Under the pieces are notes generated by a model. That model was not told where the DNA came from, searched no databases, and saw only the letters and a list, made by a program, of their open reading frames with translations. DNA of 17,382 nucleotides, from IMG/VR virus record IMGVR_UViG_3300029473_000215, one strand, 5' to 3'. This stretch comes from a virus. Its lineage: Duplodnaviria > Heunggongvirae > Uroviricota > Caudoviricetes. A program made the position numbers and the translations under genes. Of this stretch, positions 1-17,382 are shown one piece after another. Position 1 is the first letter of the stretch. Each line of letters begins with the position of its first letter.

Positions 1-1338
1 ATGCGTCAGAGAGAGCTTGCAGCCACCGCTAAGGCCTTCATGTTGGATAGGCCTGAAGTCTCACTACAGGAGCTTACAGAGCATCTCCGGTCTATGGCTG
101 AGCAGTTCCTGACAGACGCTAGTGACGATTACTGGAATGGACTTGAGGTCGCTACTTTGGTCGACGAGAAGTCCAACCTGAGGGAGCTAGCCGCTACGCA
201 AGCATTGAGTCTGGACCAGCAGAAGGGCATAAGGTTAGCGCTTGAAGTCCTGACCGCAGCACAGCAGAGGGTAGACACTGGTGATACCTCTGGTCTGATT
301 GATATTGTGATGAATAACCCTACGGATTACTCAACTATAGGCGACTCTACGTCAATTCTGAAGAATGAGCAGGGGGGTAGACCAGCAGTTTTCACACAGG
401 AGCGCCAACCTGAGGTCGCTATCTGTAGTTTTTCTGAGCTTGTGTCCTCGCTGCTGGCTGAGAAGGTCCAGACCCTGAAGTCCTCCAGCTACAAGGACCT
501 GTCGTCCTCACTGAATACCGTCTCTCGGTTCTTACCTGAAAACATGGACCTGATGTCCCGCTCTGAGTGGCTGGCTGTCAGGGACTCCATGCTGGCTGCT
601 GAGGTGAGACCATCGACAATCAACAAGCTGCTGACTAAAGCGAAGATGTGTCTTGATTACGGTCTGATGAATGGACAGCTTGAGGGCCGCAACCCTATTG
701 AACGGATGAAGCTGACCAAGGATATCGACTCCAAGCGCAGGGCGTTCACAGACGAGGAGCTGGAGAGACTTCTGGTCCGTGTTGAGTCTGAGTATCAGTT
801 CACACGACACACGGCTCACACGACCTCTGAGGCCCGTAGATGGGCGTCTCTGGTGTCTGTGGTCACTGGCGCTCGGTCTGCTGAGGTCTGCCACCTGACT
901 AAACGTGACATTGTAACCTTGGACAATGGGCTGGTCTGTATCGACATCAATGAAGATGGGGACGGGAAGTCTGTGAAGAACAAACATTCAGTCCGACTTG
1001 TGCCGTTGACCGATGGGGCCTGTGGTCTTGACCTGAAGTCCTTCCTCGAATGGGTAGACATGCAGCCTGACGAGGGTCCTCTCTTCGGGATGACTCCAAG
1101 CGCATACTCTAGCTGGTTTAACTCAAGGGTCATGACTGAAGCTCTGGGAGACGCTACGGATGTCTCTCTCCACAGTCTGAGGCACTGGCTAGCGACCAGA
1201 ATGAAAGAGCGTGGAGTCAATCTGGTGGACGCTCAGGGCATCTTAGGTCACAGCAGTCAGTCCATTACGTATGACCTGTACGGGAAAGGACATGCAGTCC
1301 AGAGACTCGCAGATGCATTGGCTGTGACGTTTGGTTAA
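1..1338 (+). CDS. Tyrosine-type site-specific recombinase (phage integrase family), 445 aa
   Basis: C-terminal catalytic motifs visible in translation: TGARSAEV (box I Arg), HSLRHW (His-x-x-Arg), LGHSSQSITYDLYGKG (conserved His and catalytic Tyr). ATG sits at window position 1, so the true N-terminus could lie upstream. Confidence 0.7.
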   Translation: MRQRELAATAKAFMLDRPEVSLQELTEHLRSMAEQFLTDASDDYWNGLEVATLVDEKSNLRELAATQALSLDQQKGIRLALEVLTAAQQRVDTGDTSGLIDIVMNNPTDYSTIGDSTSILKNEQGGRPAVFTQERQPEVAICSFSELVSSLLAEKVQTLKSSSYKDLSSSLNTVSRFLPENMDLMSRSEWLAVRDSMLAAEVRPSTINKLLTKAKMCLDYGLMNGQLEGRNPIERMKLTKDIDSKRRAFTDEELERLLVRVESEYQFTRHTAHTTSEARRWASLVSVVTGARSAEVCHLTKRDIVTLDNGLVCIDINEDGDGKSVKNKHSVRLVPLTDGACGLDLKSFLEWVDMQPDEGPLFGMTPSAYSSWFNSRVMTEALGDATDVSLHSLRHWLATRMKERGVNLVDAQGILGHSSQSITYDLYGKGHAVQRLADALAVTFG

Positions 1339-1487
1339 GTGACTGAAAGTATTAGCAACCACACTAAACTATCACTGTAGGGACTTCATCCCGCCTCTGG
1401 TCCTATGCGTAGCGTCCATGCGGGAGCCACCCAACTTAACTTTCAGCATCACTCATCCACTTTCACCATTACACGGAGGTATCCATC

Positions 1488-2222
1488 ATGGGCCGACCAG
1501 CCAAGCCACTAGACCGAATCAAACTGTACGACCATTACACCTTTGACCCAACCATTCCTCAGCTACTCCGAGTCAAGACACCTTACGGCCAATCTAAACG
1601 CGCCACAGGAGAGCCTGTTAGCTTCTATGTGCATCAAAATGGCTATGCCTCTGTCTCTGTACTGGGTAAGCGCTATCGTCGCTCCAGAGTCATCTACAGC
1701 CTGTGTAAGGGTCACATCCCTGAGGGAATGTTCGTTGACCATATCGACGGTAACCGACTCAATGACCATCCTGACAACCTGCGCCTAGTTACACCACAGC
1801 AGAACCAGTGGAACAGAGACAACCTTGGAGGCAAACTTCAGAACTATTTGCCGAAAGGGATTGACTTTGTAAAAGCTGAGGGTCGCTACAGAGCGCGTAT
1901 TAAGATAGACGGCAAGGTCCGGGCGAGACTCTCTTATGAGGTCAGGGAGCTTATGGTCTGGCTACAGGAACAGCGTCAGAAGCTACACGGTGAATTCGCC
2001 TACGATGGGTGGACCGACTGGACAGAGGCAGACCAGAAGCGAGCTGACGAGCGCTACGAGGTGTCCAAGCCTGAAGGGTATAAACCAAGGAAGCGACGTT
2101 TACCCGGCTACGCTAAGACGCATGATGGACTGAAAGTCTACATTGAGCCTAAAACTGGGCGTCTCTACTTTAAGAAGCTGAACAAGAAGCACTACATCGA
2201 CGAAGAGTCTGTGGTGGTTTGA
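1488..2222 (+). CDS. HNH homing endonuclease with AP2-like DNA-binding domain, 244 aa
   Basis: HNH motif VDHIDGNRLNDHPDNLRLVTPQQNQWN; downstream AP2-like segment GIDFVKAEGRYRARIKIDGKVRARLSYE; GGAGG SD (1475-1479) 8 nt before the ATG. Confidence 0.75.
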   Translation: MGRPAKPLDRIKLYDHYTFDPTIPQLLRVKTPYGQSKRATGEPVSFYVHQNGYASVSVLGKRYRRSRVIYSLCKGHIPEGMFVDHIDGNRLNDHPDNLRLVTPQQNQWNRDNLGGKLQNYLPKGIDFVKAEGRYRARIKIDGKVRARLSYEVRELMVWLQEQRQKLHGEFAYDGWTDWTEADQKRADERYEVSKPEGYKPRKRRLPGYAKTHDGLKVYIEPKTGRLYFKKLNKKHYIDEESVVV

Positions 2223-2369
2223 TGACGGTTGCTAACTTAGAGCGCCTCTGTAGGCCTTGGTGCGTCTGGTCTGTAGAGGAGGGGGCTAAATTATCAGTAT
2301 AGGGAAAATGGCAGACACTACCGCCTCTCCTTCCAGCAATGGGGGGAGGGGGGGCAGACCATAGATGCT

Positions 2370-2418
2370 GACTTAAAGTTAAGACTCTAAGTAAGACTGA
2401 AGTTATGACTCTAAGTTA
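2370..2418. repeat. Four tandem 12-bp direct repeats (consensus aGACTctAAGTtA), followed by an AT-rich tract (2417-2450) and a degenerate fifth copy near 2461-2473
   Basis: Read directly: gacttaaagtta / agactctaagta / agactgaagtta / tgactctaagtt. A G6-A-G7 tract lies just upstream (2341-2354). Confidence 0.7.
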
Positions 2419-2504
2419 ATTATTATCTTCTTATGAAGATTAATATAAGACCTATAGTCCAGACTTAAGTCAGACCTCATTCCTTCTATGTGTCTTCCTC
2501 AACC

Positions 2505-2780
2505 ATGGGGTCGACGATAGCTCCGTCAGTCTCCAGCTCAAAGCATCGGGACCCTGTATACATTGGGTCGTTGCTTGGGCTTCCACCTGCTAAGGAGCCG
2601 GGTCAGTGGCGTAGCTCTCTAAAAGACAAGCTCGTTAAAGATGCAATTTTGCATGTTTTAGCAGGACGCTCCGGTGGTTCGACTCCGGGTCGGCATTCAG
2701 ATTGGCAAAGTAGAAGACACCGAGTCGACACAGTACAAGCGTTTTGCTCAGACCAAAGTTGGAAAGCTACTGAGGAATAG
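2505..2780 (+). pseudogene. Partial duplicate of the KilA-N gene 5' region (KilA-N N-terminal motif fragment); may be a remnant or a small paralog
   Basis: Translation ...PPAKEPGQWRSSLKDKLVKDAILHVLAGRSGGSTPG... matches ...PSAKEPGQWRSSVRTLLDQDANLHVAHGGSTPG... of the 3011-3769 protein. Shares an exact 26-nt block (ctgctaaggagccgggtcagtggcgt) and a 17-nt block (ggtggttcgactccggg); no similarity downstream. Confidence 0.3.
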
Positions 2781-3010
2781 GCAGAAAATCCGCCTTATCC
2801 TTAGGGTCGAAGGACTTAACGGGTCCAACTTTGGGCTGGATTTAAAAGAGGAAACTTTCCTTTATCAACTATGGTCTTCACACGACCTCATCATCAATCC
2901 TCAAGTCTTTCTGTATGTCTCCTGTTGCCTGTGAGTCTCCCTATCGTTGGGGGCTTGAGTAGGCTTTCAGGGTGTGACTTCAGGAGGCATAACAAAAGGA
3001 GTACAACGAT

Positions 3011-3769
3011 ATGTCAACTCAACCCTTAATGAAGCATGAAGTAGTTCTTCCGGTCATCGTTGACGGCTATCACTGGGCCTGTAATCAGGACCGTATGTGG
3101 AACCTGAACGAGCTACATAAAGAGCTTGAGCTTCCATCTGCTAAGGAGCCGGGTCAGTGGCGTTCTAGCGTCAGGACGCTTCTTGACCAAGATGCAAATT
3201 TGCATGTTGCTCATGGTGGTTCGACTCCGGGGACATGGGCTACTGAAGAGGCGGCTATTGCCTATGCGATGTGGGTCTCACCTGATTTCTACCTTAAGGT
3301 CATCCGTGCTTTCATCGCTTTACGTAACGACAAAGTGTCGGAAGCTAAGGCGCTGGCGCAGGACTCCAAGGAACTTAAGGGTCTCAAGCCTATAGCCCGT
3401 AACTGGCTGGAAAAGCTGGATAACCCGAAGCAGGGCCACACCCTGACAGAGTGTCTTAAGAATCTCGACTTCAGGTTAGGTACAAAGCTGGTATCAGCCA
3501 AGGCTCTTAATGCCGTATTGAAGTCAGGGCGTATAGCTAATCCCTTCTATAGTCGCAAGCTGGACGGTCGAGGACAGCCTGTATTTGACATCTCATCAGG
3601 TGGCTGGATGACCAGCTTCAATCCTAAGGGTCTGGAGAACGGCTATTACCGTCTTCAGGATAACCACTATAACGGTCAGGAGGGGCTTAAGGTCCTCACC
3701 AAGGGTTACGAGTGGCTTAAGTCCAACAAGGTCGAGCTGGTTCGTCTGTGCGCTAAGGGAGGACTCTAA
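3011..3769 (+). CDS. KilA-N domain protein, 252 aa
   Basis: KilA-N/APSES-like signature ...HGGSTPGTWATEEAAIAYAMWVSPDFYLKVIRAF; SD aaaaggag 10 nt upstream of the ATG. Confidence 0.7.
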   Translation: MSTQPLMKHEVVLPVIVDGYHWACNQDRMWNLNELHKELELPSAKEPGQWRSSVRTLLDQDANLHVAHGGSTPGTWATEEAAIAYAMWVSPDFYLKVIRAFIALRNDKVSEAKALAQDSKELKGLKPIARNWLEKLDNPKQGHTLTECLKNLDFRLGTKLVSAKALNAVLKSGRIANPFYSRKLDGRGQPVFDISSGGWMTSFNPKGLENGYYRLQDNHYNGQEGLKVLTKGYEWLKSNKVELVRLCAKGGL

Positions 3770-3770
3770 G

Positions 3771-3944
3771 ATGATTGACCCGCGCACACCTGAGGGCCGC
3801 ATGACTCTCCGTTACCGTGGCTATCGGACTGAAGTCCTCCTCAGAGAGCTTGGTCTAGACCCGGAAGATGAGACCCGCCAGCACCAATCCCGAGACGAGC
3901 TAATAGCCCAACTGGTCGCTATGAAACTGTCGCTAGCAAGCTAG
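3771..3944 (+). CDS. Small hypothetical protein, 57 aa (below the ORF-track length cutoff)
   Basis: ATG one nucleotide after the KilA-N stop (TAAgATG); GGAGG at 3758-3762, 8 nt upstream; uninterrupted frame to TAG at 3942-3944; translation MIDPRTPEGRMTLRYRGYRTEVLLRELGLDPEDETRQHQSRDELIAQLVAMKLSLAS. Confidence 0.45.
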   Translation: MIDPRTPEGRMTLRYRGYRTEVLLRELGLDPEDETRQHQSRDELIAQLVAMKLSLAS

Positions 3945-4081
3945 CTGTCTCCTAACCGTTAGTAGCTCACCTACTCAATACCTGATTTTAAAACCTTTTG
4001 AGATGACCGATGCGGGGAGACCCGTAGGCATAACTGTGTCTGCGATACCGATAGTCTCAACTCTCAATAGGAGTACACCTT

Positions 4082-4573
4082 ATGTTATTCAACAACAACG
4101 ACTGGAAACTGTCAGTCACCGACATCAATCTCTACGAGAATACTGTGAGTCTGGACGGTCAGTCCTATCCGTTGTCGCTCGCTATCAAGACCCTCATTCC
4201 GGGCTACCTGTCCGGCCTGCCAGCCACCAGCCGTGAGTCTATGGAGCTACTGGAAGCTCTGGCTGAAGCTGGCGTGACCATTGGTAACTTCTTCAGTAAT
4301 GACCTGATGACCGCCTACCAACGCCGCCAGATGAATAAGCGTGTCGAGGCTGAGCGTATCGCTAAAGAGCTGGCGTCTCAGAAAGAGCGTACCCGCGAAA
4401 TGTTCATGACCGAAGACGAATGGCAGAAAGAGTTACAACGCCGCGAACAGGTCAAAGCTGAACGCCGGACCTATGGTGAGAACCTCCGCAGCGCTACCCA
4501 TTCCGCTGGTCGTTCCCGTGCCGCTATTGTCGCTGACCTTGAGTCAGGCGGTAACTGGCTGGACAGCCTGTAA
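4082..4573 (+). CDS. Hypothetical protein, 163 aa, with charged, probably helical C-terminal half (scaffold-like is a guess)
   Basis: AGGAG SD upstream of the ATG; C-terminal region rich in E/R/K/Q heptad-like runs (RRQMNKRVEAERIAKELASQKERTREMF...QKELQRREQVKAERR). No family recognised. Confidence 0.6.
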   Translation: MLFNNNDWKLSVTDINLYENTVSLDGQSYPLSLAIKTLIPGYLSGLPATSRESMELLEALAEAGVTIGNFFSNDLMTAYQRRQMNKRVEAERIAKELASQKERTREMFMTEDEWQKELQRREQVKAERRTYGENLRSATHSAGRSRAAIVADLESGGNWLDSL

Positions 4574-4641
4574 GACTCACAAGTGGTCCTGACCTGATGT
4601 CGGGACCCACGTATCTAAACTAATTTAGGAGATTGATTATT

Positions 4642-5628
4642 ATGACTATGACTAAAGACAGCTATCAGTTCGGCATTGAGCCAGTACGTATCACCGACAC
4701 CGACAACATTCAGGTCAATGAAGGTCTGCCGACTAACGCTGACCCACAGGTCTATGCCCTCCAGTTAGCTAAGACGGTTAAGGCTATGCTGAACGGTGTA
4801 CTTAAAGACGCTCAGGATAACATTCCGTTCCCTGTAGAAGTCCTGCCTACCCGCAATAGCCTGCCTACCCCAATCATCGCCCACACTCTGTCTGACCGCT
4901 CTGTGGTCGTCCCTGTACGCGGTGGTGAGCGACCTGAAGTCGTGACCGCTCCGTCTGGTCAGGAGATTGTGGTAGAGCCTATTGAGCAAGCTATCCTTGT
5001 GTCTCACCAGACCAAGCTATGGGACGTCAAGTCTTCCACTGGTTTCACTCAGGGTACGCTCCAGCAGGACGCTATGAACATCTGTGAGAATGTGGTCCGT
5101 ACCATCAACGCTCGCATGGTTGACGTTCTGGAGTCCTCCAAGCTGCTGAAGACTGTAGAGCTGCCAGTCCTGACTGGAAGCCTGACCACTAAGGCAGACG
5201 CTATCATGGACGCTCTGTACGAGAACACCGAGCCTTCCTTTGGTTCTGAGGTTACTGATTACGGTATCATCGCCCATGAGTCACACCTCAAGGCTCTCTC
5301 CCGTCTGGCTGCTAAGCAGGGCTTCGGTGGTGAAGACGCTATCGTGGATATGCTGGGTACCGACATCGCGTATTACAACGGTGAGGACAAAGGTGTGTTC
5401 ATGCTGGCTAAACGCTTCACGGCCCTGAGCTTCGGCTGCTTCCGTCACGACGGTGAGAATATTACGGTCGTCCTTTCACGTGATGGCGACTCTCAGTCCC
5501 ATGACCTTGAGATTCTCGGTAAAGTGTTCGTTGTCGCTGAAGCTGCTACGACCATCAAGATGGGCACTGGCTCAGCTACTGCCGTCCTGCCTGTAGTCAA
5601 ACGCCTGAGTTTCACTAAGACAAGCTAA
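4642..5628 (+). CDS. Hypothetical protein, 328 aa (possibly structural; unrecognised)
   Basis: Long ORF with AGGAG at 4627-4631, 10 nt before ATG 4642 (the ORF track starts at an upstream TTG, 4633); followed by a strong intrinsic terminator. No motif recognised. Confidence 0.65.
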   Translation: MTMTKDSYQFGIEPVRITDTDNIQVNEGLPTNADPQVYALQLAKTVKAMLNGVLKDAQDNIPFPVEVLPTRNSLPTPIIAHTLSDRSVVVPVRGGERPEVVTAPSGQEIVVEPIEQAILVSHQTKLWDVKSSTGFTQGTLQQDAMNICENVVRTINARMVDVLESSKLLKTVELPVLTGSLTTKADAIMDALYENTEPSFGSEVTDYGIIAHESHLKALSRLAAKQGFGGEDAIVDMLGTDIAYYNGEDKGVFMLAKRFTALSFGCFRHDGENITVVLSRDGDSQSHDLEILGKVFVVAEAATTIKMGTGSATAVLPVVKRLSFTKTS

Positions 5629-5647
5629 CTAACAATAACGACTTATT

Positions 5648-5686
5648 GGTCAGACTTCCGTAACTGGATGTCTGGCCTTTATTTTG
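5648..5686 (+). terminator. Rho-independent terminator after the 328-aa gene
   Basis: GGTCAGAC (5648-5655) pairs with GTCTGGCC (5670-5677) with one G-U pair, inner TCC/GGA pairs, followed by TTTATTTTG. Confidence 0.5.
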
Positions 5687-5728
5687 TACTAGTAATCTAG
5701 TTCATGGGTGCGGAAAGAGGAGGACCTA

Positions 5729-5839
5729 ATGGACCTACACAAAGTCTATCTCGTAGTCTTCCTGCTAAAGCTAGCTCTGGTAGTCGTGCTGATGGTCTGG
5801 CCTAAAGTACGATGGTTTCTGACAGAAAAATGTGAATGA
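5729..5839 (+). CDS. Small hydrophobic peptide, 36 aa, predicted single transmembrane helix (below ORF-track cutoff)
   Basis: GAGGAGGA SD (5717-5724) 5 nt before ATG 5729; translation MDLHKVYLVVFLLKLALVVVLMVWPKVRWFLTEKCE; stop TGA at 5837-5839. Confidence 0.4.
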   Translation: MDLHKVYLVVFLLKLALVVVLMVWPKVRWFLTEKCE

Positions 5840-5940
5840 CCATCTAATACATTGAGCCAGCAGACTTCCCCCCATAGTCCCGCCTCAAGTCCTGACCGAG
5901 GCCACCGGGGGGCCTGACCAGCCGTCTAGACATCCCGTCT

Positions 5941-5974
5941 AATGACACAAGTCTGGCACAAAGAATGACACAAG
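5941..5974. repeat. Two exact 11-bp direct repeats (aatgacacaag) at 5941-5951 and 5964-5974, 57-90 bp from the island/chromosome junction
   Basis: Read directly from sequence. Confidence 0.6.
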
Positions 5975-5982
5975 GTCTTGAC

Positions 5983-7440
5983 TCAATGCAGGACCTCAGG
6001 CCTACTAAGGGTCCGCTTCAAGTCCTTGAAGTTCCAGATGAACTTAATGGGCACATCCAGTTTATCTTTGCCCCGGACGCCGTCGCGGATTGCCGTCATT
6101 TTGGGGCCATGATCGATAGCATCTGTCCAGCTGAAGCAGGAAATTGACGTTTTGACCGGATTATCCAGCACCGGCAGGCGCTCTATGGTAATGGTATAGG
6201 TCGATTCACGCGCGCCACTATTTCCGCCGCTGATGCCGACATTGCCCGTCAGAATAGGCAACATAGCAATAGCGCGTGCGGTCAGCTCGCCGTTTGCCTG
6301 GCGTTGTGGCCCCCAGCCCTGGCAGGTATAAGCGGGTTTTGCTGTGCCAATTTCACGCGCCAGTTTGATGATACGGTCCACCGGGATACCGGTAATTTGC
6401 GAAGCCCACTGCGGCGTTTTCGCTGTTTTATCGTCACCTTCACCAAGAATATAGGCTTTATAGTGACCATTTTTGGGTGCATCTGCGGGTAAGGTTTTTT
6501 CGTCATAGCCGACGCAGTATTTATCGAGAAAAGGTTGATCAACGAGATTTTCGTTAATCAATACCCAGGCAATACCCGCAACCAGCGCGGCATCGGTGCC
6601 CGGGCGAATAGGAAGCCATTCATCTTCACGACCAGCAGCCGTATCGGTATATCGCGGATCGATAACAATCATTTTGGCGTTCGATTTCTCGCGCGCTTTT
6701 TCAAGAAGATAAGTGATGCCACCGCCGCTCATGCGGGTTTCTGCCGGGTTGTTACCAAACATCACGACCAGCTTGCTGTTTTCAATATCCGTGGTGCTGT
6801 TGCCATCATTACTGCCGTAGGTGTAGGGCATGGCACAGGAAATTTGCGCAGTGCTGTAGGAGCCATACTGGTTGAGTGAACCGCCGTAGCAGTTCATCAG
6901 GCGTTTGACCGCCGAGGCTGATGGCGAAGAGCGGGTCATATTGCCGCCAACAATCCCCGAAGAGTACTGAATATATACAGCCTCATTGCCATATTGTTCG
7001 ACGGTTTTTTTCAGACTACTGGCGATAGTATCCAGGGCTTCATCCCAGCTAATCCGTTCGAATTTGCCTTCACCGCGTTTACCCACGCGTTTCATTGGGT
7101 AATTCAAGCGATCGGGATGATTAATACGCCGGCGGATGGAGCGACCGCGCAAACAGGCGCGTACTTGATGATTGCCATACTCGTCGTTGCCGGTGTTGTC
7201 AGTTTCCACCCAGATCACTTCATTATCTTTAACATGTAGACGAAGTGCACAGCGGCTACCACAGTTGACGGAACAGGCACCCCAGACCACTTTCTCGCTG
7301 GCCTGTTGTACCGCTGCCGCTGCACTGCGTAGGGTGAACGGTAAAGAAAAACCGCCTGCAGCCAGCGCCAGAGAACCTATCGCGGTAGATTTAACGAGTG
7401 TTCTGCGGCTGATGCCCACCATTCGTTCATTTTTGGACAT
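5983..7440 (-). pseudogene. ynfE: 3'-truncated ynfE (DmsA-family molybdopterin oxidoreductase, Tat-secreted): about 470 native codons plus a 15-codon foreign tail
   Basis: N-terminus MSKNERMVGISRRTLVKSTAIGSLALAAG (twin-arginine signal) and body match E. coli YnfE/DmsA from memory. Homology ends after ...DVPIKFIWN (codon at 6033-6031), then FKDLKRTLSRPEVLH-stop from island DNA. Full-length protein is about 800 aa. Confidence 0.85.
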
Positions 7441-7539
7441 AACTCACTCCCTGTTCTTTATCGTTATATAAATGTTTATATATTGAATATTTAGCGCGCT
7501 AACAATAGAGGGAGTCTACCCATTTTGGGTTAAGAATTA

Positions 7540-7553
7540 TTAATCCACATCAA
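7540..7553. promoter_or_regulatory. Putative FNR-box (TTAAT-N4-ATCAA) upstream of ynfE
   Basis: ttaatccacatcaa matches 9 of 10 positions of the FNR consensus TTGAT-N4-ATCAA, about 100 bp upstream of the ynfE start; ynfEFGH is known to be anaerobically induced. Confidence 0.35.
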
Positions 7554-7600
7554 TAGAAGGGTATGAGTAATATGGTGGGATTATGTTGTATGTTCAAATC

Positions 7601-7621
7601 GCCGGATGTGTCATATCCGGC
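7601..7621 (-). terminator. Perfect 7-bp stem hairpin between ynfD and ynfE (possible weak terminator or attenuator for ynfD)
   Basis: gccggat-gtgtcat-atccggc; on the minus strand it is followed by only GATTTG, so the U-tract is weak. Confidence 0.3.
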
Positions 7622-7638
7622 GTTCAGTCGATAATGTG

Positions 7639-7947
7639 TTACTGCGGTTCGGCAGGCGCGCCATCCTGGCTAGACTGCGCGGGAGCAGAGACGTTACCGC
7701 TGGTGGTGCGGGTATAGAGAATTTTATGCGTATCATTAGCGCAATGGCCGACGACCTGGGAATCAGGCTGATCAACCTGGTCATTGGGTACAATACTTAA
7801 CGTGAAGCTGCTTTCGGGTACGCCATTATTGATAATGCGCTGTGATATATCGCTCTGTATGCGCTCACAGGATCCCGGCGCGGCGAGTACCGCGGGTGAG
7901 GCGAGGGCGAGCAGAAGCGCGGCACAGCAGGTTGAGAGTTTCATCAT
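7639..7947 (-). CDS. ynfD: YnfD, DUF1161-family secreted protein
   Basis: Translation MMKLSTCCAALLLALASPAVLA... (signal peptide) matches E. coli YnfD from memory; GGAG SD upstream of ATG 7947/7944; the ORF-track start at 7986 is an upstream extension. Confidence 0.85.
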   Translation of the reverse strand: MMKLSTCCAALLLALASPAVLAAPGSCERIQSDISQRIINNGVPESSFTLSIVPNDQVDQPDSQVVGHCANDTHKILYTRTTSGNVSAPAQSSQDGAPAEPQ

Positions 7948-8051
7948 AAGCTCCTTACGCGAAGATAACTTCTTTAAGCATAGCATTTAACGTGTAAAGT
8001 ACTGTATTTGCTACTATGATTGAGAATCATCTCTACTCTCTGGTGACTGTT

Positions 8052-8762
8052 GTGAAATACAAATTACTACCATGCTTACTCGCGATATTCCTCACAGGAT
8101 GTGACCGCACAGAGGTAACACTTTCATTTACCCCTGAGATGGCCAGTTTCTCTAATGAATTCGATTTTGATCCGCTGCGTGGTCCGGTAAAAGATTTCAC
8201 TCAGACATTAATGGATGAGCAAGGTGAAGTGACGAAACGTGTTTCTGGGACTTTGTCGGAAGAAGGCTGTTTTGATTCACTCGAATTACTGGATCTGGAA
8301 AATAATACCGTGGTCGCTCTGGTACTGGACGCCAATTATTACCGTGATGCCGAGACGCTGGAGAAGAGAGTACGTTTACAGGGAAAATGCCAGCTAGCAG
8401 AATTACCTTCTGCCGGGGTGAGTTGGGAAACCGATGATAATGGCTTCGTGATTAAAGCCAGCAGCAAACAAATGCAGATGGAATATCGCTATGATGATCA
8501 GGGTTATCCGCTGGGTAAAACCACGAAAAGTAACGACAAAACATTATCTGTCAGCGCCACGCCATCAACGGATCCGATCAAAAAATTAGATTACACAGCG
8601 GTTACTTTACTGAATAATCAACGGGTTGGTAATGTAAAACAGAGCTGTGAATATGACAGTCACGCTAATCCGGTGGACTGTCAGCTAATCATTGTTGATG
8701 AAGGAGTAAAACCCGCCGTCGAACGGGTTTACACCATCAAAAATACGATCGATTATTATTAA
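8052..8762 (+). CDS. ynfC: YnfC, UPF0257 lipoprotein
   Basis: GTG start giving MKYKLLPCLLAIFLTGC (lipobox LTGC); matches E. coli YnfC from memory; the ORF-track start at 8016 is an upstream extension. Confidence 0.85.
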   Translation: MKYKLLPCLLAIFLTGCDRTEVTLSFTPEMASFSNEFDFDPLRGPVKDFTQTLMDEQGEVTKRVSGTLSEEGCFDSLELLDLENNTVVALVLDANYYRDAETLEKRVRLQGKCQLAELPSAGVSWETDDNGFVIKASSKQMQMEYRYDDQGYPLGKTTKSNDKTLSVSATPSTDPIKKLDYTAVTLLNNQRVGNVKQSCEYDSHANPVDCQLIIVDEGVKPAVERVYTIKNTIDYY

Positions 8763-8764
8763 TG

Positions 8765-9325
8765 CTATTGTGCGGTCGGCTTCAGGAGAGTCTGACCCGG
8801 TGTTTTGTGCTCTGCCAGATACTGATGCTGGAATATACACATGCGAATGGCATTACGATATTGACCATTAATAAAGAACTCGTGCATCAATTCACCTTCA
8901 ACCGAAAAGCCAAGCTTGCGGTAAATGTGAATCGCTTTTTCATTCTCTTTATCAACGATCAGATACAGCTTATAGAGATTGAGAACGGTAAAGCCATAGT
9001 CCATTGCTAATTTGGCGGCACGGGTTGCCAGACCTTTCCCCTGATACTCCGGGGAGATAATTATCTGAAATTCTGCGCGGCGATGAACATGGTTAATTTC
9101 CACCAGCTCCACCAGACCGGCTTTTTCGCCGTCACATTCCACCACAAAGCGCCGTTCGCTCTGATCGTGAATATGCTTATCATACAGATCAGAGAGTTCA
9201 ACAAAGGCTTCGTAGGGTTCCTCAAACCAGTAACGCATCACACTGGCGTTATTGTCGAGTTGATGTACATAGCGTAAATCTTCACGCTCCAGCGGGCGTA
9301 GCTTAACACTGTGGGCGCTTGGCAT
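8765..9325 (-). CDS. speG: Spermidine N1-acetyltransferase SpeG (GNAT family), 186 aa
   Basis: Translation [26 protein letters not shown]... matches E. coli SpeG from memory. Confidence 0.95.
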
Positions 9326-9359
9326 AACGTGTCCTTACATTCCTTAAATCAATAACAGG

Positions 9360-9701
9360 TTAGGGGGTAATAACGCGGCCAGTTCGACGGTCCAGGCAGC
9401 GCAAAGTATTGGGCTCCCAGTAGGCATTGATGTTGGCGCTTTGCTCACATTTATCGCGGTTATCAAAAGCGGCGTCGGCTTTATCCCACTCTTTTTCAGT
9501 GCGTTTATTCACTTTCTGGCGCAGATTGCGCGTGTCATTCCATTGCTCTTTTTCCATAGCGGCGTGCTGGCGGCTTTGTGCACTGTCGCCAGACTCAATC
9601 ACCAGTTTGTTAGTTTCGGCATGAACAGTTGTGCTCAATGCCAGTGCGCAAGGCAGCAGAATAGCGAGCAGGCCGATTCGTTTGCTGAGAGTGATTTTCA
9701 T
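9360..9701 (-). CDS. ynfB: YnfB, UPF0482 secreted protein, 113 aa
   Basis: N-terminal signal peptide [28 protein letters not shown]; position between speG and ynfA as in K-12. Confidence 0.85.
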
Positions 9702-9835
9702 AATTCATTCCCTGTATGAATGATTAAAGGTGATTCTACACCATCCACTGCGGACGCAAAACGTACCAGGAGGGTGTTTATATTGATGATATTATGTCGC
9801 CCTATAACTATACATGATGTCAATAAGAGACAAAG

Positions 9836-10162
9836 ATGATTAAAACAACGTTACTATTTTTTGCTACTGCGCTGTGTGAAATTATTGGATGCTTTCTGCC
9901 CTGGTTGTGGTTAAAACGAAACGCCAGTATCTGGCTGTTGCTTCCGGCGGGGATTTCACTGGCGCTGTTTGTCTGGTTGTTAACGTTGCCTCCAGCGGCG
10001 AGTGGGCGTGTTTACGCGGCTTATGGTGGCGTTTATGTCTGCACGGCGTTGATGTGGCTGCGCGTTGTGGATGGCGTGAAACTGACTCTTTATGACTGGA
10101 CGGGTGCGTTGATTGCGCTTTGCGGCATGTTGATCATTGTTGCGGGCTGGGGGCGCACGTAG
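9836..10162 (+). CDS. ynfA: YnfA, UPF0060 inner-membrane protein, 108 aa
   Basis: Hydrophobic four-helix profile; sequence [27 protein letters not shown]... matches E. coli YnfA from memory. Confidence 0.85.
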
Positions 10163-10199
10163 GAACATAAATCCATTTTATCAATAAGATAAGAGGAAG

Positions 10200-10211
10200 T
10201 GTCAGCTGACA
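10200..10211. promoter_or_regulatory. Perfect 12-bp palindrome TGTCAGCTGACA in the rspA upstream region (candidate operator)
   Basis: Read directly; lies about 160 bp upstream of the rspA ATG. Confidence 0.25.
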
Positions 10212-10367
10212 AAAGGTATTCTATTTCATCTTTTGTCAACCATTCACAGCGCAAATATACGCCTTTTTTTGTGATCACTCCGGCTTTTTTCAATCTTCAT
10301 ACTTGTATGGTAGTAGCTCAGATGCGTAGATTTCATGCATCACGACAAGCGATGCAAGGAATCGAAC

Positions 10368-11582
10368 ATGAAGATCGTAAAGGCTGAAGTTTTTGTTACC
10401 TGTCCGGGGCGTAATTTCGTCACATTAAAAATCACCACTGAGGACGGTATTACGGGCCTTGGGGATGCCACCCTCAATGGACGTGAGCTTTCCGTGGCCT
10501 CTTATTTGCAGGATCACCTTTGTCCGCAGCTTATTGGTCGCGATGCGCACCGTATCGAAGATATCTGGCAGTTTTTCTATAAAGGTGCTTACTGGCGTCG
10601 CGGTCCGGTTACGATGTCGGCCATTTCAGCGGTTGATATGGCGCTGTGGGATATTAAAGCCAAAGCTGCCAACATGCCGCTTTACCAGTTACTCGGCGGC
10701 GCGTCTCGTGAAGGGGTGATGGTTTATTGCCATACCACCGGTCACAGTATTGTTGAAGCTCTGGATGATTATGCCCGTCATCAGGAGCTGGGATTCAAAG
10801 CCATCCGCGTGCAGTGCGGAATCCCTGGTATGAAAACCACCTACGGCATGTCGAAAGGTAAAGGTCTGGCTTATGAACCCGCAACCAAAGGACAGTGGCC
10901 GGAAGAGCAGCTGTGGTCGACGGAGAAATACCTCGATTTCATGCCGAAATTGTTTGACGCGGTACGTAACAAGTTTGGTTTTAATGAACATTTGCTGCAT
11001 GACATGCACCATCGCTTAACGCCTATTGAAGCGGCGCGCTTTGGTAAAAGCATTGAAGATTATCGCATGTTCTGGATGGAAGACCCGACGCCTGCGGAAA
11101 ACCAGGAATGCTTCCGTCTCATTCGCCAACATACCGTCATACCCATCGCAGTGGGTGAAGTCTTCAACAGCATCTGGGACTGCAAACAACTGATTGAAGA
11201 GCAACTCATCGATTATATCCGCACCACGCTGACCCATGCAGGCGGAATTACCGGTATGCGCCGGATTGCCGATTTTGCTTCGCTGTATCAGGTACGTACT
11301 GGCTCACACGGTCCTTCCGATTTGTCACCAGTCTGCATGGCTGCGGCGCTGCACTTTGATCTGTGGGTCCCCAATTTCGGTGTCCAGGAATACATGGGTT
11401 ATTCCGAACAAATGCTCGAAGTCTTCCCGCACAACTGGACTTTCGATAACGGCTATATGCATCCGGGAGACAAACCGGGTCTTGGTATCGAATTCGATGA
11501 AAAGCTGGCGGCGAAATATCCCTATGAACCTGCTTATCTACCAGTCGCACGTCTGGAAGATGGCACGCTGTGGAACTGGTAA
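10368..11582 (+). CDS. rspA: Starvation-sensing protein RspA (enolase superfamily, mannonate dehydratase-like), 404 aa
   Basis: Translation [40 protein letters not shown]... matches E. coli RspA from memory; AAGGA SD 7 nt before ATG 10368; the ORF-track start at 10335 is an upstream extension. Confidence 0.93.
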
Positions 11583-11593
11583 GGAGTAAGATA

Positions 11594-12613
11594 ATGAAAA
11601 GCATATTAATTGAAAAACCGAATCAACTGGCGATTGTCGAACGTGAAATACCCACCCCGTCAGCGGGTGAAGTACGAGTAAAAGTGAAACTTGCCGGAAT
11701 TTGTGGTTCAGATAGCCATATTTATCGTGGGCATAATCCTTTTGCGAAATATCCGCGCGTCATTGGTCATGAATTCTTTGGCGTCATTGATGCAGTGGGT
11801 GAAGGCGTGGAAAGCGCCAGAGTCGGTGAACGTGTTGCTGTCGATCCGGTGGTCAGCTGTGGGCATTGCTATCCGTGCTCTATAGGTAAACCGAACGTTT
11901 GTACGACACTGGCTGTATTAGGTGTGCACGCTGACGGTGGTTTCAGTGAATATGCCGTGGTTCCGGCAAAAAATGCGTGGAAAATTCCTGAAGCAGTGGC
12001 CGATCAATATGCGGTAATGATCGAACCTTTTACCATTGCGGCTAACGTAACCGGACATGGTCAACCGACTGAAAATGATACCGTTCTGGTTTATGGTGCC
12101 GGTCCAATCGGCCTGACGATCGTTCAGGTATTAAAAGGCGTCTATAACGTTAAAAATGTGATTGTTGCCGATCGCATTGATGAACGACTGGAAAAAGCGA
12201 AAGAGAGCGGGGCTGACTGGGCGATTAATAACAGCCAGACACCGCTTGGCGAGATTTTCACTGAAAAAGGCATCAAGCCGACATTAATTATCGATGCGGC
12301 TTGTCATCCTTCTATCCTGAAAGAGGCCGTAACGCTGGCTTCTCCAGCGGCACGTATTGTATTGATGGGGTTCTCCAGTGAACCGTCTGAAGTGATTCAG
12401 CAAGGAATTACCGGAAAAGAACTCTCTATTTTCTCTTCACGCTTAAATGCAAATAAATTCCCGATCGTTATCGACTGGTTAAGTAAAGGGTTAATTAAAC
12501 CAGAAAAATTAATTACCCATACGTTTGATTTCCAGCATGTTGCTGATGCCATTAGTTTATTTGAACAGGATCAAAAACATTGCTGCAAAGTCTTACTCAC
12601 TTTTTCTGAATAA
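11594..12613 (+). CDS. rspB: Starvation-sensing protein RspB (Zn-dependent alcohol dehydrogenase family), 339 aa
   Basis: Translation MKSILIEKPNQLAIVEREIPTPSAGEVRVKVKLAGICGSDSHIY... with Zn-ligand motifs GHEFFG and CGHCYPC; AAGGAG SD; 11-nt gap after rspA (operon). Confidence 0.93.
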   Translation: MKSILIEKPNQLAIVEREIPTPSAGEVRVKVKLAGICGSDSHIYRGHNPFAKYPRVIGHEFFGVIDAVGEGVESARVGERVAVDPVVSCGHCYPCSIGKPNVCTTLAVLGVHADGGFSEYAVVPAKNAWKIPEAVADQYAVMIEPFTIAANVTGHGQPTENDTVLVYGAGPIGLTIVQVLKGVYNVKNVIVADRIDERLEKAKESGADWAINNSQTPLGEIFTEKGIKPTLIIDAACHPSILKEAVTLASPAARIVLMGFSSEPSEVIQQGITGKELSIFSSRLNANKFPIVIDWLSKGLIKPEKLITHTFDFQHVADAISLFEQDQKHCCKVLLTFSE

Positions 12614-12626
12614 TACCAATAACGGC

Positions 12627-12657
12627 GAGTAAGTAGTACGCATCTTACCTCTTTTTT
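12627..12657 (+). terminator. Candidate rho-independent terminator of rspAB
   Basis: Imperfect stem gagtaag...cttacctc followed by a TTTTTT run at 12652-12657, 14 nt after the rspB stop. Confidence 0.4.
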
Positions 12658-12670
12658 AGAGATAACCATT

Positions 12671-12790
12671 ATGACAATAGAAAAACACGAAAGAAGCACT
12701 AAGGATTTGGTGAAAGCAGCAGTATCGGGATGGCTGGGCACTGCGCTTGAATTTATGGATTTCAAGAGTCATACGTGTCAACTATATTGA
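12671..12790 (+). pseudogene. ydfJ: 5' fragment (39 codons) of an MFS transporter gene (ydfJ-like), truncated by prophage insertion
   Basis: Translation MTIEKHERSTKDLVKAAVSGWLGTALEFMDF resembles the start of ProP/KgtP-type MFS transporters, then ends after 8 unrelated codons. In K-12, ydfJ is, to my recollection, split by the Qin prophage next to rspB. Confidence 0.5.
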
Positions 12791-12801
12791 TAAATATTAA
12801 A

Positions 12802-14082
12802 TTAATTTTTCATTGCTTCGTTATGGGGCATGGTTGGGGCAAACTCGCTTAACTGTGTATTTAACAAAGCTACCTGTGCATTATTGTTTTCAGACATCCA
12901 TTTTCCGTATACCTGAAATACCATTTGCGCATCTGCATGGCCCATCTGGTTTGCTATAAATGCCGGGTTAGCACCAGCTGTCAGCGACCAGCAGGCATAA
13001 GTATGTCTCGACTGATATGATTTTCGATGGCGGAGTCCGGCACGTTTTATCGCTGCGTCCCACATCTGCCTTATTGAGTCAACGGTAAAATGGTCACCAT
13101 AATTTTTTACTCCCGCTGACACTTCAGGTTGAAAAACAAAGGTGCATTTTTGTTTTTCTGTTCTGCCATACTCTCTGAGGTGAACATCAATGATATGCTC
13201 TTTGCTCAGTCTCGTTAATGTCATCTGACTCCGGAGAGCGTCGATTGCTGGCTTAATAAGATGAATGACCCGATTGGTTCCCGCCTGTGTTTTTGGTACC
13301 GTGAAACGGTCTTTTGCTAAATTTCTCCTGATCATCATTGTTCCATTTTTCAGATCTATGTCCTCCCATCCAAGTGCACACAGCTCACCAGGGCGAACGC
13401 CAGTATAAACAGAAACACACCATAAATTTTTTGCTTGCTGATTTCTGCACGCATCGATAAGACGGATAAATTCCTCCCGCGAAAGAGGATCCGGAATGGT
13501 TCTTGATTCCTTTAATGGCGAGATCCCCTTAAACGGATTATCTGGCAGGTAACCGTTATCAACACCAAACTGGAACACGGCGTTAAGATTTGTCATGTAA
13601 TTATTTACAGTTACAGCCGATCTTCCTGGTTGTGTAACAATATAGTTACTTTTGGGGATCTGGTATCCAGTCAGTAGCTCTTTACGAACCTCCAGTAATT
13701 TTTCTTTATTAATCGATGAGGCAAGATTTTTTTCACCGATTATGCTCAGGATATTTTTGATGACGGCACGGTATGTGTTGAGTGATGTTTTGGCGACTTC
13801 AGTTTCTTTCAGTGCCAGAAATTTTTCAGCCAGTTCTTTTATGGTTAAATCTTGTCGGGCCTCACCAAATTTTTCCAGATTGCGTGAGGAGGGAAACTGT
13901 TTTGCATAGTCGAAAACACCAGTTTTTATTGCGTAACAAACAGAGGAGCGTAGTTCACCTGCAACGCGCCTGTTTTTTGCTGTGTCAGGAACCCCCAGAT
14001 TTTCCCTGACTCTTACGCCTTTATAGACAAACCAGATACGTAATTTCCCTCCATGGTTTTCCACGCCTGTCGGATATTTCAT
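12802..14082 (-). CDS. Lambdoid phage integrase (tyrosine recombinase with N-terminal arm-binding domain), about 426 aa
   Basis: N-terminus MKYPTGVENHGGKLRIWFVYKGVRVRE resembles Rac IntR-type arm-binding domains; C-terminus carries RHRKSYQSRHTYAC...GHADAQMVFQVYGKW. Start chosen at 14082; an alternative ATG is at 14097. Confidence 0.9.
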   Translation of the reverse strand: MKYPTGVENHGGKLRIWFVYKGVRVRENLGVPDTAKNRRVAGELRSSVCYAIKTGVFDYAKQFPSSRNLEKFGEARQDLTIKELAEKFLALKETEVAKTSLNTYRAVIKNILSIIGEKNLASSINKEKLLEVRKELLTGYQIPKSNYIVTQPGRSAVTVNNYMTNLNAVFQFGVDNGYLPDNPFKGISPLKESRTIPDPLSREEFIRLIDACRNQQAKNLWCVSVYTGVRPGELCALGWEDIDLKNGTMMIRRNLAKDRFTVPKTQAGTNRVIHLIKPAIDALRSQMTLTRLSKEHIIDVHLREYGRTEKQKCTFVFQPEVSAGVKNYGDHFTVDSIRQMWDAAIKRAGLRHRKSYQSRHTYACWSLTAGANPAFIANQMGHADAQMVFQVYGKWMSENNNAQVALLNTQLSEFAPTMPHNEAMKN

Positions 14083-14116
14083 TTCAACTTCTCTCATTAG
14101 TTAGTGTGGCTTTTAG

Positions 14117-14368
14117 TCAAGTAAGATGACGTCTTGGTCTCGCTGATGCCTGGCGCTCAATCCAGCGATCAATTTCTTCCAGGTTGTAAAAGCATGGACT
14201 GTTATCCCATGGCATACCGTCATGAGCGACATGCTTATATTCCCTTCCTTCCATAAACGATTTTTCCCGGGCCTTTTTTAGCGTACCTTTTTTTATTCCT
14301 TTCAGCGCAATTAACTGCTCTTCGGATACCCATTTGCCGGGAGAGACAATCATGATTACTTCGCTCAT
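14117..14368 (-). CDS. Excisionase-like protein, 83 aa
   Basis: Small basic protein immediately upstream of int on the same strand; sequence ...GKWVSEEQLIALKGIKKGTLKKAREKSFMEGREYKHV... resembles the lambdoid prophage excisionase-like family from memory. Confidence 0.65.
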   Translation of the reverse strand: MSEVIMIVSPGKWVSEEQLIALKGIKKGTLKKAREKSFMEGREYKHVAHDGMPWDNSPCFYNLEEIDRWIERQASARPRRHLT

Positions 14369-14397
14369 CGATTTCTTTATCTCTTACATCAGACGAG

Positions 14398-14429
14398 CGC
14401 CGGTTGCAGAATACCAGTCACAACCGGCG
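14398..14429. other. 9-bp perfect inverted repeat with 14-nt spacer between the exo and xis genes
   Basis: cgccggttg (14398-14406) and caaccggcg (14421-14429); no adjacent U-tract on either strand. Confidence 0.3.
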
Positions 14430-14440
14430 ACAGTTGAACA

Positions 14441-16912: not shown

Positions 16913-17005
16913 TTTGTTTTAACCTCATGACAGATTTAAGGATGAACAAATCCCTGCCATTGCTGGCATATAAGAATGAAACCGGATATTTATTACGGAA
17001 CTGTT

Positions 17006-17197
17006 TTAAAGACCTGCCGGGATTTCGATATTATCCTGGTGAATAACTTTATCGACCGGGTAACAGTTACCGGGAATTTTCTGTTCGGTTGCTGCAGTCA
17101 TACACTCCTGCATTGTCCTGTGAACACTGACTGCAATATCAACTGGCACTCCGGAAACAAGAAAAACTGTCAGAACAAGCGCAAATGCTGAATTCAT
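17006..17197 (-). CDS. Small hypothetical protein with N-terminal hydrophobic segment, 63 aa
   Basis: AAGGA SD 8 nt before ATG 17197; translation MNSAFALVLTVFLVSGVPVDIAVSVHRT...; start overlaps the stop of the upstream gene (ATGA). The ORF track begins at an upstream ATG, 17251. Confidence 0.5.
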   Translation of the reverse strand: MNSAFALVLTVFLVSGVPVDIAVSVHRTMQECMTAATEQKIPGNCYPVDKVIHQDNIEIPAGL

Positions 17198-17382
17198 TGT
17201 GCACATCCTTTTGGCATCAGACGTAAACGAGCCAGCATTGAAACAATGCATATTTTATTTAATAGCTCCCGTTCTTGTTTTCTCTTGTTAATGGCATCTT
17301 CAGTAAATACAGGGTTACTGATAGTGACACCAATTTCAAAACAACCTTCAGACGTATTAACGTTTGGTAATAACGTTTTCAT
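17194..17382 (-). CDS. Small hypothetical protein, at least 62 aa; start coincides with the window edge so it may be 5'-partial
   Basis: Open frame on the minus strand ending with a TGA that overlaps the next ATG (translational coupling); no family recognised. Confidence 0.4.
   Translation of the reverse strand: MKTLLPNVNTSEGCFEIGVTISNPVFTEDAINKRKQERELLNKICIVSMLARLRLMPKGCAQ

Follow-up and report, generated by a model that had tools for sequence, protein, structure and literature searches.

The stretch of DNA analyzed here, referred to as the window, spans 17,382 nucleotides of the IMG/VR virus record IMGVR_UViG_3300029473_000215 (Caudoviricetes). Positions 1-6029 belong to an integrase-bearing island with all of its genes on the plus strand. 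At position 6030, the island abuts a truncated copy of the bacterial gene ynfE, with which the anaerobic selenate-reductase operon ynfEFGH-dmsD begins. The open reading frames (ORFs) and attachment (att) sites at this boundary are listed below; L017 is a metagenome scaffold identical to the window that extends past its left edge.

5983..7440, minus strand: chimeric ORF ynfE′ of 485 aa, consisting of 470 YnfE codons, 15 island-encoded codons and a stop (program-made ORF list)
6030..7440, minus strand: 5′ fragment of ynfE, corresponding to nt 1-1411 of K-12 ynfE (blastn, 97.5% identity over 1411 nt)
6030-6044, no strand assigned: attR core AGTTCCAGATGAACT, 15 bp, equal to ynfE nt 1397-1411 (codons K-F-I-W-N)
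-318..-304 in window coordinates, outside the window: attL core, the second copy, on scaffold L017
5629..6029, plus strand: noncoding right arm of the island (attP derived), approximately 400 nt, with short repeats
1..1338, plus strand: 3′ 445 codons of a tyrosine integrase gene (Pfam PF00589, 1.6e-13)

When ynfE of Escherichia coli K-12 MG1655 (2427 nt) was aligned to the window with blastn, a single real match was obtained, pairing nt 1-1411 with positions 7440-6030 on the minus strand. Left of 6030, the same search returned merely chance matches of 13 to 20 nt. The final fully matched codon is located at 6033-6031, and homology extends for one more base, to 6030. An earlier interpretation based on the letters of the window (the sequence-only reading) had placed the cut after about codon 470, with the last matching codon at 6033-6031, followed by 15 unrelated codons and a stop. 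The ORF translation and the reference alignment agree with this description, as ynfE homology does not continue left of 6030. The translation runs to ...DVPIKFIWN and then enters the foreign tail FKDLKRTLSRPEVLH, which is encoded by the last 47 nt of the right arm. The island sequence does not restore ynfE, as it supplies these 15 unrelated codons and a stop. Full-length K-12 YnfE has 808 residues, which turns the previous estimate of roughly 330 missing codons into an exact figure of 338.

A twin-arginine (Tat) motif, SRRTLVK, can be read near the start of the ynfE′ translation (…GISRRTLVKS…). In the 485-aa product, Pfam identifies Molybdop_Fe4S4 at residues 49-108 and 225 of the 353 positions of the Molybdopterin profile. 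The Molydop_binding domain, found at 687-800 in full-length K-12 YnfE, is missing. The complete domain set of a functional catalytic subunit of a DmsA/YnfE-type molybdoenzyme is therefore not present in ynfE′, while K-12 YnfE has both domains. The sequence-only reading had assigned the truncated protein a Tat signal and N-terminal iron-sulfur and molybdopterin regions. The motif and the iron-sulfur domain are indeed kept, together with a part of the Molybdopterin domain, and this coverage is consistent with the proposed loss of function. The 485-aa ynfE′ product is thus predicted not to be a working catalytic subunit.

Neither the ORF list nor blastn reveals the 3′ part of ynfE, ynfF, ynfG, ynfH or dmsD within the window. 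These genes are not included because the window begins inside the integrase gene, approximately 0.3 kb short of the left end of the island. A look-up of the exact 485-aa chimeric product recovered ten contigs, among which L017 (ENA ERZ28580485, scaffold_70; 149 kb, metagenome) equals window positions 1-17382 with zero mismatches or gaps and holds 4,018 nt more on the left. In L017, the attL core is directly followed by ynfE nt 1397-2427, then ynfF and the start of ynfG. Its ynfF aligns to K-12 across all 2,424 nt, free of gaps and stops. The core-to-core length of the island is 6,348 bp, and ynfE nt 1397-1411 are present at both of its ends, such that 15 bp are duplicated and zero ynfE bases are lost at the insertion point, codons 466-471. 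In the complete E. coli genomes CD45 and WP4-S18-ESBL-08, the far side of the island likewise consists of ynfE nt 1397-2427, followed by ynfF, ynfG, ynfH and dmsD.

The observation that ynfFGH-dmsD are not downstream of the truncated gene, made in the sequence-only reading, is therefore true inside the window, while in L017 the ynfE 3′ part, ynfF and the beginning of ynfG are found directly beyond the other end of the island. Two accounts had been proposed. According to the first, the island inserted into ynfE and displaced the remainder of the operon past its far end; this is the arrangement in L017, where the ynfE 3′ part and the operon genes reached by the scaffold were located 6.3 kb away at the integrase end, and in 18 other loci. 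According to the second, the insertion was followed by deletion of the ynfE 3′ part and ynfFGH-dmsD, as might be expected from a window that contains none of these genes. This account is excluded by the window-identical L017, which has lost no ynfE base and in which ynfE nt 1397-2427 are followed by a complete ynfF and the beginning of ynfG. As the genes also lie directly beyond the island in all 18 other loci, what likelihood remains for a deletion is very small.

The breakpoints are identical in all 19 island-bearing loci, with the 15-bp core at both ends, and the core occurs once in K-12 ynfE. In silico removal of the island yields an intact 808-aa ynfE in 17/19 loci, including L017. A survey of 5,426 complete E. 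coli genomes located the attL junction in 147 of them and the attR junction in at least 110; the uninterrupted (empty) site is found in 5,116. An assembly chimera, or the insertion of a transposon or insertion sequence (IS), would also account for the abrupt end of homology, and for nothing else. The former is at odds with the recurrence of this exact junction in over 100 genomes that were closed independently, as well as in the independent, window-identical scaffold. The latter does not match the single conserved target, the 15-bp end repeat equal to attB, and the presence of a tyrosine integrase. In addition, profile searches and a comparison of the ends revealed no transposase of its own, of the DDE type or otherwise, and no terminal inverted repeats in the island, and the IS elements in some copies are secondary. 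The probability of either explanation is close to negligible.

The integrase gene is intact. In L017, its ORF is open over approximately 526 to 528 aa, starting about 243 to 249 nt left of the window and 61 nt from the attL core. The apparently complete ORF at 1-1338 is therefore a truncation at the window edge; position 1 of the window coincides with an internal ATG, from which some gene callers begin the gene (445 aa). All residues of the catalytic R-K-HxxR-H-Y set are present (TGAR, KNKHS, HSLRH, GHSS, YDLY). Tyrosine recombinase sites usually consist of two inverted core-type binding sites flanking an overlap region, and the core in ynfE is an imperfect palindrome, AGTTC-CAGAT-GAACT. Among ynfE, ynfF and dmsA, both half-sites (AGTTC and GAACT) are found in ynfE only. 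The equivalent sequences of the paralogs, AGTTTTTATGGTGCT in ynfF and AAATGATCTGGAACT in dmsA, miss one or both of them, which fits an integrase specificity for ynfE over its paralogs. We also considered ynfF and dmsA as additional targets of the integrase. They were rejected on account of the missing half-sites and the position of the island copies: whenever a match covered the integrase and extended to the junction, the copy was located at ynfE. Together, the integrase and its 15-bp palindromic core constitute a well-defined site-specific pair.

In 13/19 loci, position 12 of the core is a G in attL and an A in attR and attB. This pattern would be expected if attP had a G and strand exchange took place left of position 12, within 6030-6040. 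The right arm contains two copies each of AATGACACAAG (at 5941 and 5964) and CCGCYTCAAGTCCT (at 5880 and 6013), and an inverted copy, GGACTTGAAG, is present in the left arm. These repeats may represent arm-type binding sites of the integrase.

The observed breakpoints, core duplication, intact integrase gene, recurrent junction and empty sites lead us to conclude, with high confidence, that window positions 6030-6044 are the attR core of a 6,348-bp integrative element, which was inserted site specifically into ynfE by a tyrosine recombinase. In the proposed mechanism, the integrase would recombine the attP core with the 15-bp attB AGTTCCAGATGAACT inside ynfE, duplicating the core at both island ends at no loss of host bases. 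The 5′ part of ynfE (1,411 nt) would stay beside its promoter and read into island DNA, giving the 485-aa dead-end product, and the 3′ part and ynfFGH-dmsD would end up 6.3 kb away, at the integrase end. Several points weigh against this interpretation. The window holds one island end only, and the left end is known from the window-identical scaffold L017. No exact attP junction of an excised circle was found in IMG/VR or Joint Genome Institute (JGI) metagenome contigs, and Pfam recognized no excisionase or recombination directionality factor in the island. Finally, the loss of YnfE function and the polarity on downstream genes are predicted effects.

Two Logan contigs were evaluated as candidate excised circles and rejected. 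L006 (SRR29836470; 6,661 bp) is a sister island of approximately 83% identity with a palindromic core that is similar to, but not the same as, that in ynfE, TAGTTCAGATTGAACT; it contains both att cores and 14 nt of host flank at each end, and resembles an assembly-graph break at the junctions. L031 (6,413 bp) lacks terminal overlap.

The island interiors differ by 6 to 17% at identical breakpoints, and across the 19 loci they show 83 to 97% identity, other cargo genes and secondary IS insertions. Given that divergent interiors share the same breakpoints, repeated integration or turnover of the island at the ynfE site appears more likely than a single inherited event. Citrobacter koseri also has an island of this type in its ynfE region; ynfF and ynfD flank it, and the attR core is present. 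In the ten contigs with an identical ynfE′, positions 5810-6029 are as conserved as the host flank, forming a single alignment from 5810 rightwards at 98.2 to 99.7% identity. The island interior (1-5621) of the same contigs aligns piecewise at 78 to 99%, mostly 86 to 94%, and carries different cargo. The contrast between a conserved right end and a divergent interior suggests island replacement or recombination at an occupied site, or else a strong constraint on the attP arm. In loci L002 and L012, the ynfE 5′ fragment shares 97.8% identity with K-12, against 99.7% for the 3′ fragment across the island. Here, one flank may have traveled with the island by homologous recombination.

As all island genes point the opposite way, ynfFGH-dmsD are probably cut off from the ynfE promoter by the 6.3-kb island. 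A crude scan found no sigma-70-like promoter between the left end of the island and ynfF, and promoter and terminator scans around both junctions yielded nothing usable. In Salmonella, the catalytic subunit of selenate reductase is predicted to be YnfE, and YnfF adds little activity (PMC5203670). The operon ends with the gene for DmsD, which the dimethyl sulfoxide (DMSO) reductase DmsABC needs for its maturation (PMC12096835), and therefore the insertion could affect more than selenate reduction. Expression of ynfF behaves unlike that of ynfE (PMC12096835), such that ynfF may have an internal promoter. Carriers are predicted to be devoid of YnfE, with ynfFGH and dmsD possibly underexpressed. 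In the complete E. coli genomes examined, the Prokaryotic Genome Annotation Pipeline (PGAP) flags both ynfE halves as pseudogenes. In approximately 3% of complete E. coli genomes, the ynfE "pseudogene" corresponds to one part of a gene cut cleanly in two, and the operon would be better annotated as interrupted, not deleted.

Secondary lesions in the split operon were observed in four of the 19 loci: an IS1 in the ynfE 3′ piece together with a nonsense mutation in ynfF (L008), a one-base frameshift in ynfF (L009), an IS in ynfF (L011) and a stop in the ynfE 3′ piece (L024). In this small and nonindependent sample, the lesions hint at relaxed selection on the split operon.

These lesions also bear on an extension of site-specific insertion, in which the island acts as a reversible switch (regulated gene integrity). 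On cues such as anaerobiosis, selenate or tellurate, phage infection or the SOS response, it would excise, restore ynfE and the operon, and reintegrate. ynfE is indeed classed as a candidate of this kind in the supplement and text passages of Mageeney et al. on regulated gene integrity (PMC7192596). Moreover, neither the integrase ORF nor either core is damaged, an exact excision would yield the 808-aa ynfE again in 17/19 loci, with the source scaffold among them, and the same site is used in Escherichia, Shigella and Citrobacter. However, the IMG/VR and JGI metagenome contigs contain no attP junction and no excisionase was recognized. The intact fragments may merely reflect recent insertions, and the extra lesions in L008, L009, L011 and L024 fit a silenced locus better than a maintained switch, although this argument is weak. 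On balance, we consider a switch unlikely.

The remainder of the site-specifically inserted island encodes the following proteins, with further small ORFs between the named genes.

1488..2222, plus strand: HNH endonuclease (HNH_3), profile match, in the variable cargo slot
3011..3769, plus strand: KilA-N domain protein, putative regulator, profile match; Rha-type or other proteins in sister islands
4082..4573, plus strand: 163-aa protein with a charged helical C-terminal half, homologs of which match Pfam DUF6971
4642..5628, plus strand: HK97 major-capsid/encapsulin-fold protein of 328 aa (by its model), "hypothetical" in the records examined; the ORF list starts at TTG 4633 (331 aa)

The cargo slot between the integrase and KilA-N genes (1339-3010) varies at the same site, with an HNH endonuclease here and other hypothetical genes elsewhere. 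In the sister islands at tRNA sites, the slot is occupied by DUF4145, and in some island copies it has received IS66, IS21, IS110 or IS3 insertions. PADLOC gave weak partial matches only (homing endonuclease, PDC-S22), which are insufficient to call a defense system. Besides the integrase and the KilA-N regulator, searches with Pfam, PHROGs, NCBIfam and PADLOC recognized no primase, rep or other replication gene, AlpA, terminase, portal, protease or tail gene in the island, several ORFs of which have no assignment. The island DNA has no match in 50,697 phage genomes, its GC content is not distinguishable from that of the host, and an Rfam scan of the whole window returned no family at gathering score.

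No sequence match to the 328-aa protein was obtained in Pfam, PHROGs, NCBIfam, PADLOC or PDB, and tblastn found none in the 50,697 phage genomes. An exhaustive HMMER search with this protein retrieved 62 representatives among 1.84 billion proteins, 33 of which were used to build an AlphaFold (AF2) model with a predicted local distance difference test (pLDDT) of 84.9 and a predicted template modeling (pTM) score of 0.79. Foldseek matched this model to 226 PDB and 209 BFVD entries at an E value of ≤1e-3. Nearly all of the best 50 matches in each database are capsid, head-protein or encapsulin entries (some unnamed), with a probability of 1.00 and modest TM-scores of 0.33 to 0.49. Modest TM-scores are common for the flexible HK97 fold. 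By its model, the 328-aa protein is of the HK97 capsid/encapsulin fold.

The capsid-fold gene is always directly preceded by a gene for a 138- to 169-aa protein, some of which match Pfam DUF6971; the 163-aa protein of the window itself gave nothing in NCBIfam or PDB sequence searches. The order of integrase, cargo, regulator, DUF6971 protein, HK97-fold protein and att site is conserved even in relatives of 31 to 36% identity, and recurs in sister islands, of which one occupies a tRNA-Gly gene in E. coli and another a tRNA-like site in Rouxiella. Close homologs of the capsid-fold protein occur in Shigella flexneri records. IMG/VR loci with the capsid-fold gene are situated on viral-region contigs of 18 to 73 kb.

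A capsid-fold protein in an island devoid of recognizable portal, terminase and tail genes appears to be unreported. Literature searches found nothing on DUF6971/PF22318 and no named satellite family that fits the island architecture. More speculatively, the island could represent a family of virus-like or satellite elements of approximately 6 to 7 kb in Enterobacterales that has yet to be described, with the HK97-fold shell protein and its DUF6971 partner as sole structural genes. Such elements would move in particles that they build themselves or that a helper completes. The lineage that targets ynfE would excise, for example upon helper infection or anaerobiosis, and thereby transiently restore the selenate-reductase operon as a gene-integrity switch. 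We regard this combined proposal as doubtful. The capsid-fold gene nevertheless makes this small element family worth experimental attention.

To the right of ynfE′, the window continues with ynfD, ynfC, speG, ynfB, ynfA and rspAB, followed by the integrase end of a lambdoid prophage.

12802-17382, minus strand: integrase end of a lambdoid prophage, next to rspB, the K-12 position of the cryptic prophage Qin

This prophage end encodes an intact integrase (431-aa ORF; 426-aa gene call), an 83-aa excisionase, an 823-aa YdfE-type exonuclease, ydfD and dicB. With the lambdoid prophage beside rspB and the island in ynfE, the ynfE-rspB segment has an integrase-bearing element on either side.

Among known elements, SaPIbov5 reportedly encodes Ccm, an HK97-type capsid homolog that redirects the capsid size of its helper. 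The minimalist PICMI satellites illustrate that approximately 6 kb suffices for a satellite (PMC10803314). Like SaPIbov5 and PICMI, the ynfE island is small and bears an integrase. Unlike these satellites, it has no identified AlpA, primase, packaging signal or helper phage. The "twilight" mini HK97 entities of the human gut, which are temperate and small, encode a capsid-fold protein, a scaffold, an integrase and regulators but no terminase, portal or tail (bioRxiv 10.1101/2025.06.18.659913). The resemblance is by description, and these entities differ from the ynfE island in averaging 8.9 kb and in carrying RepA or helicase genes (bioRxiv 10.1101/2025.06.18.659913), while profile searches recognized no replication gene in the island.

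Two sister islands of the same family are L004, at the tRNA-Gly gene glyU, and L030, from Rouxiella. Both share with the ynfE island an integrase, cargo, a regulator, a 160-aa protein, the HK97-fold protein and att sites. The tRNA-site sisters differ in their integrases, of 535 aa, and in their core, which is the 3′ end of the tRNA gene (TCCCTTCGCCCGCTCCA), and therefore their target is not inactivated. Among the sister islands compared, a gene is broken by the ynfE-targeting lineage only.

Classical gene-splitting elements include skin in sigK, phi10403S in comK and prophages in mlrA, as summarized in the passages of the TIGER paper that treat them (PMC7192596). Similar to the ynfE island, these are integrase-bearing elements inside a coding sequence, which is rebuilt by precise excision. 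For skin, phi10403S and the mlrA prophages, condition-linked excision has been demonstrated, whereas the ynfE island is known here from sequence. It also differs from them in that a paralog of its target, ynfF, lies immediately downstream, and in that some carriers show secondary decay.

The most direct counterpart is found in the TIGER study itself, in which Mageeney et al. (Nucleic Acids Research, 2020) list ynfE among 19 new "regulated gene integrity" candidates (PMC7192596). The supplement entries concerned are Eco892.7.ynfE (7 kb, E. coli) and Sfl13.8.ynfE (8 kb, Shigella flexneri), both of which disrupt the Molybdopterin domain (PMC7192596). According to these entries, the two elements resemble the window island in bearing an integrase and in splitting ynfE within the Pfam Molybdopterin domain without restoring it. 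Compared by description, they are almost certainly of the same element family and at the same site. Since ynfE-splitting elements were listed in 2020, the ynfE junction itself is already known as a catalogued phenomenon, and is ordinary for mobile-element biology. The relevant passages of the text and supplement give mapping and classification only, without core sequence, population frequency or gene content (PMC7192596). To that record, the present analysis adds the core sequence and its palindrome, the specificity for ynfE relative to its paralogs, the frequency in the population, proof that nothing was deleted, and the limits of the switch idea.

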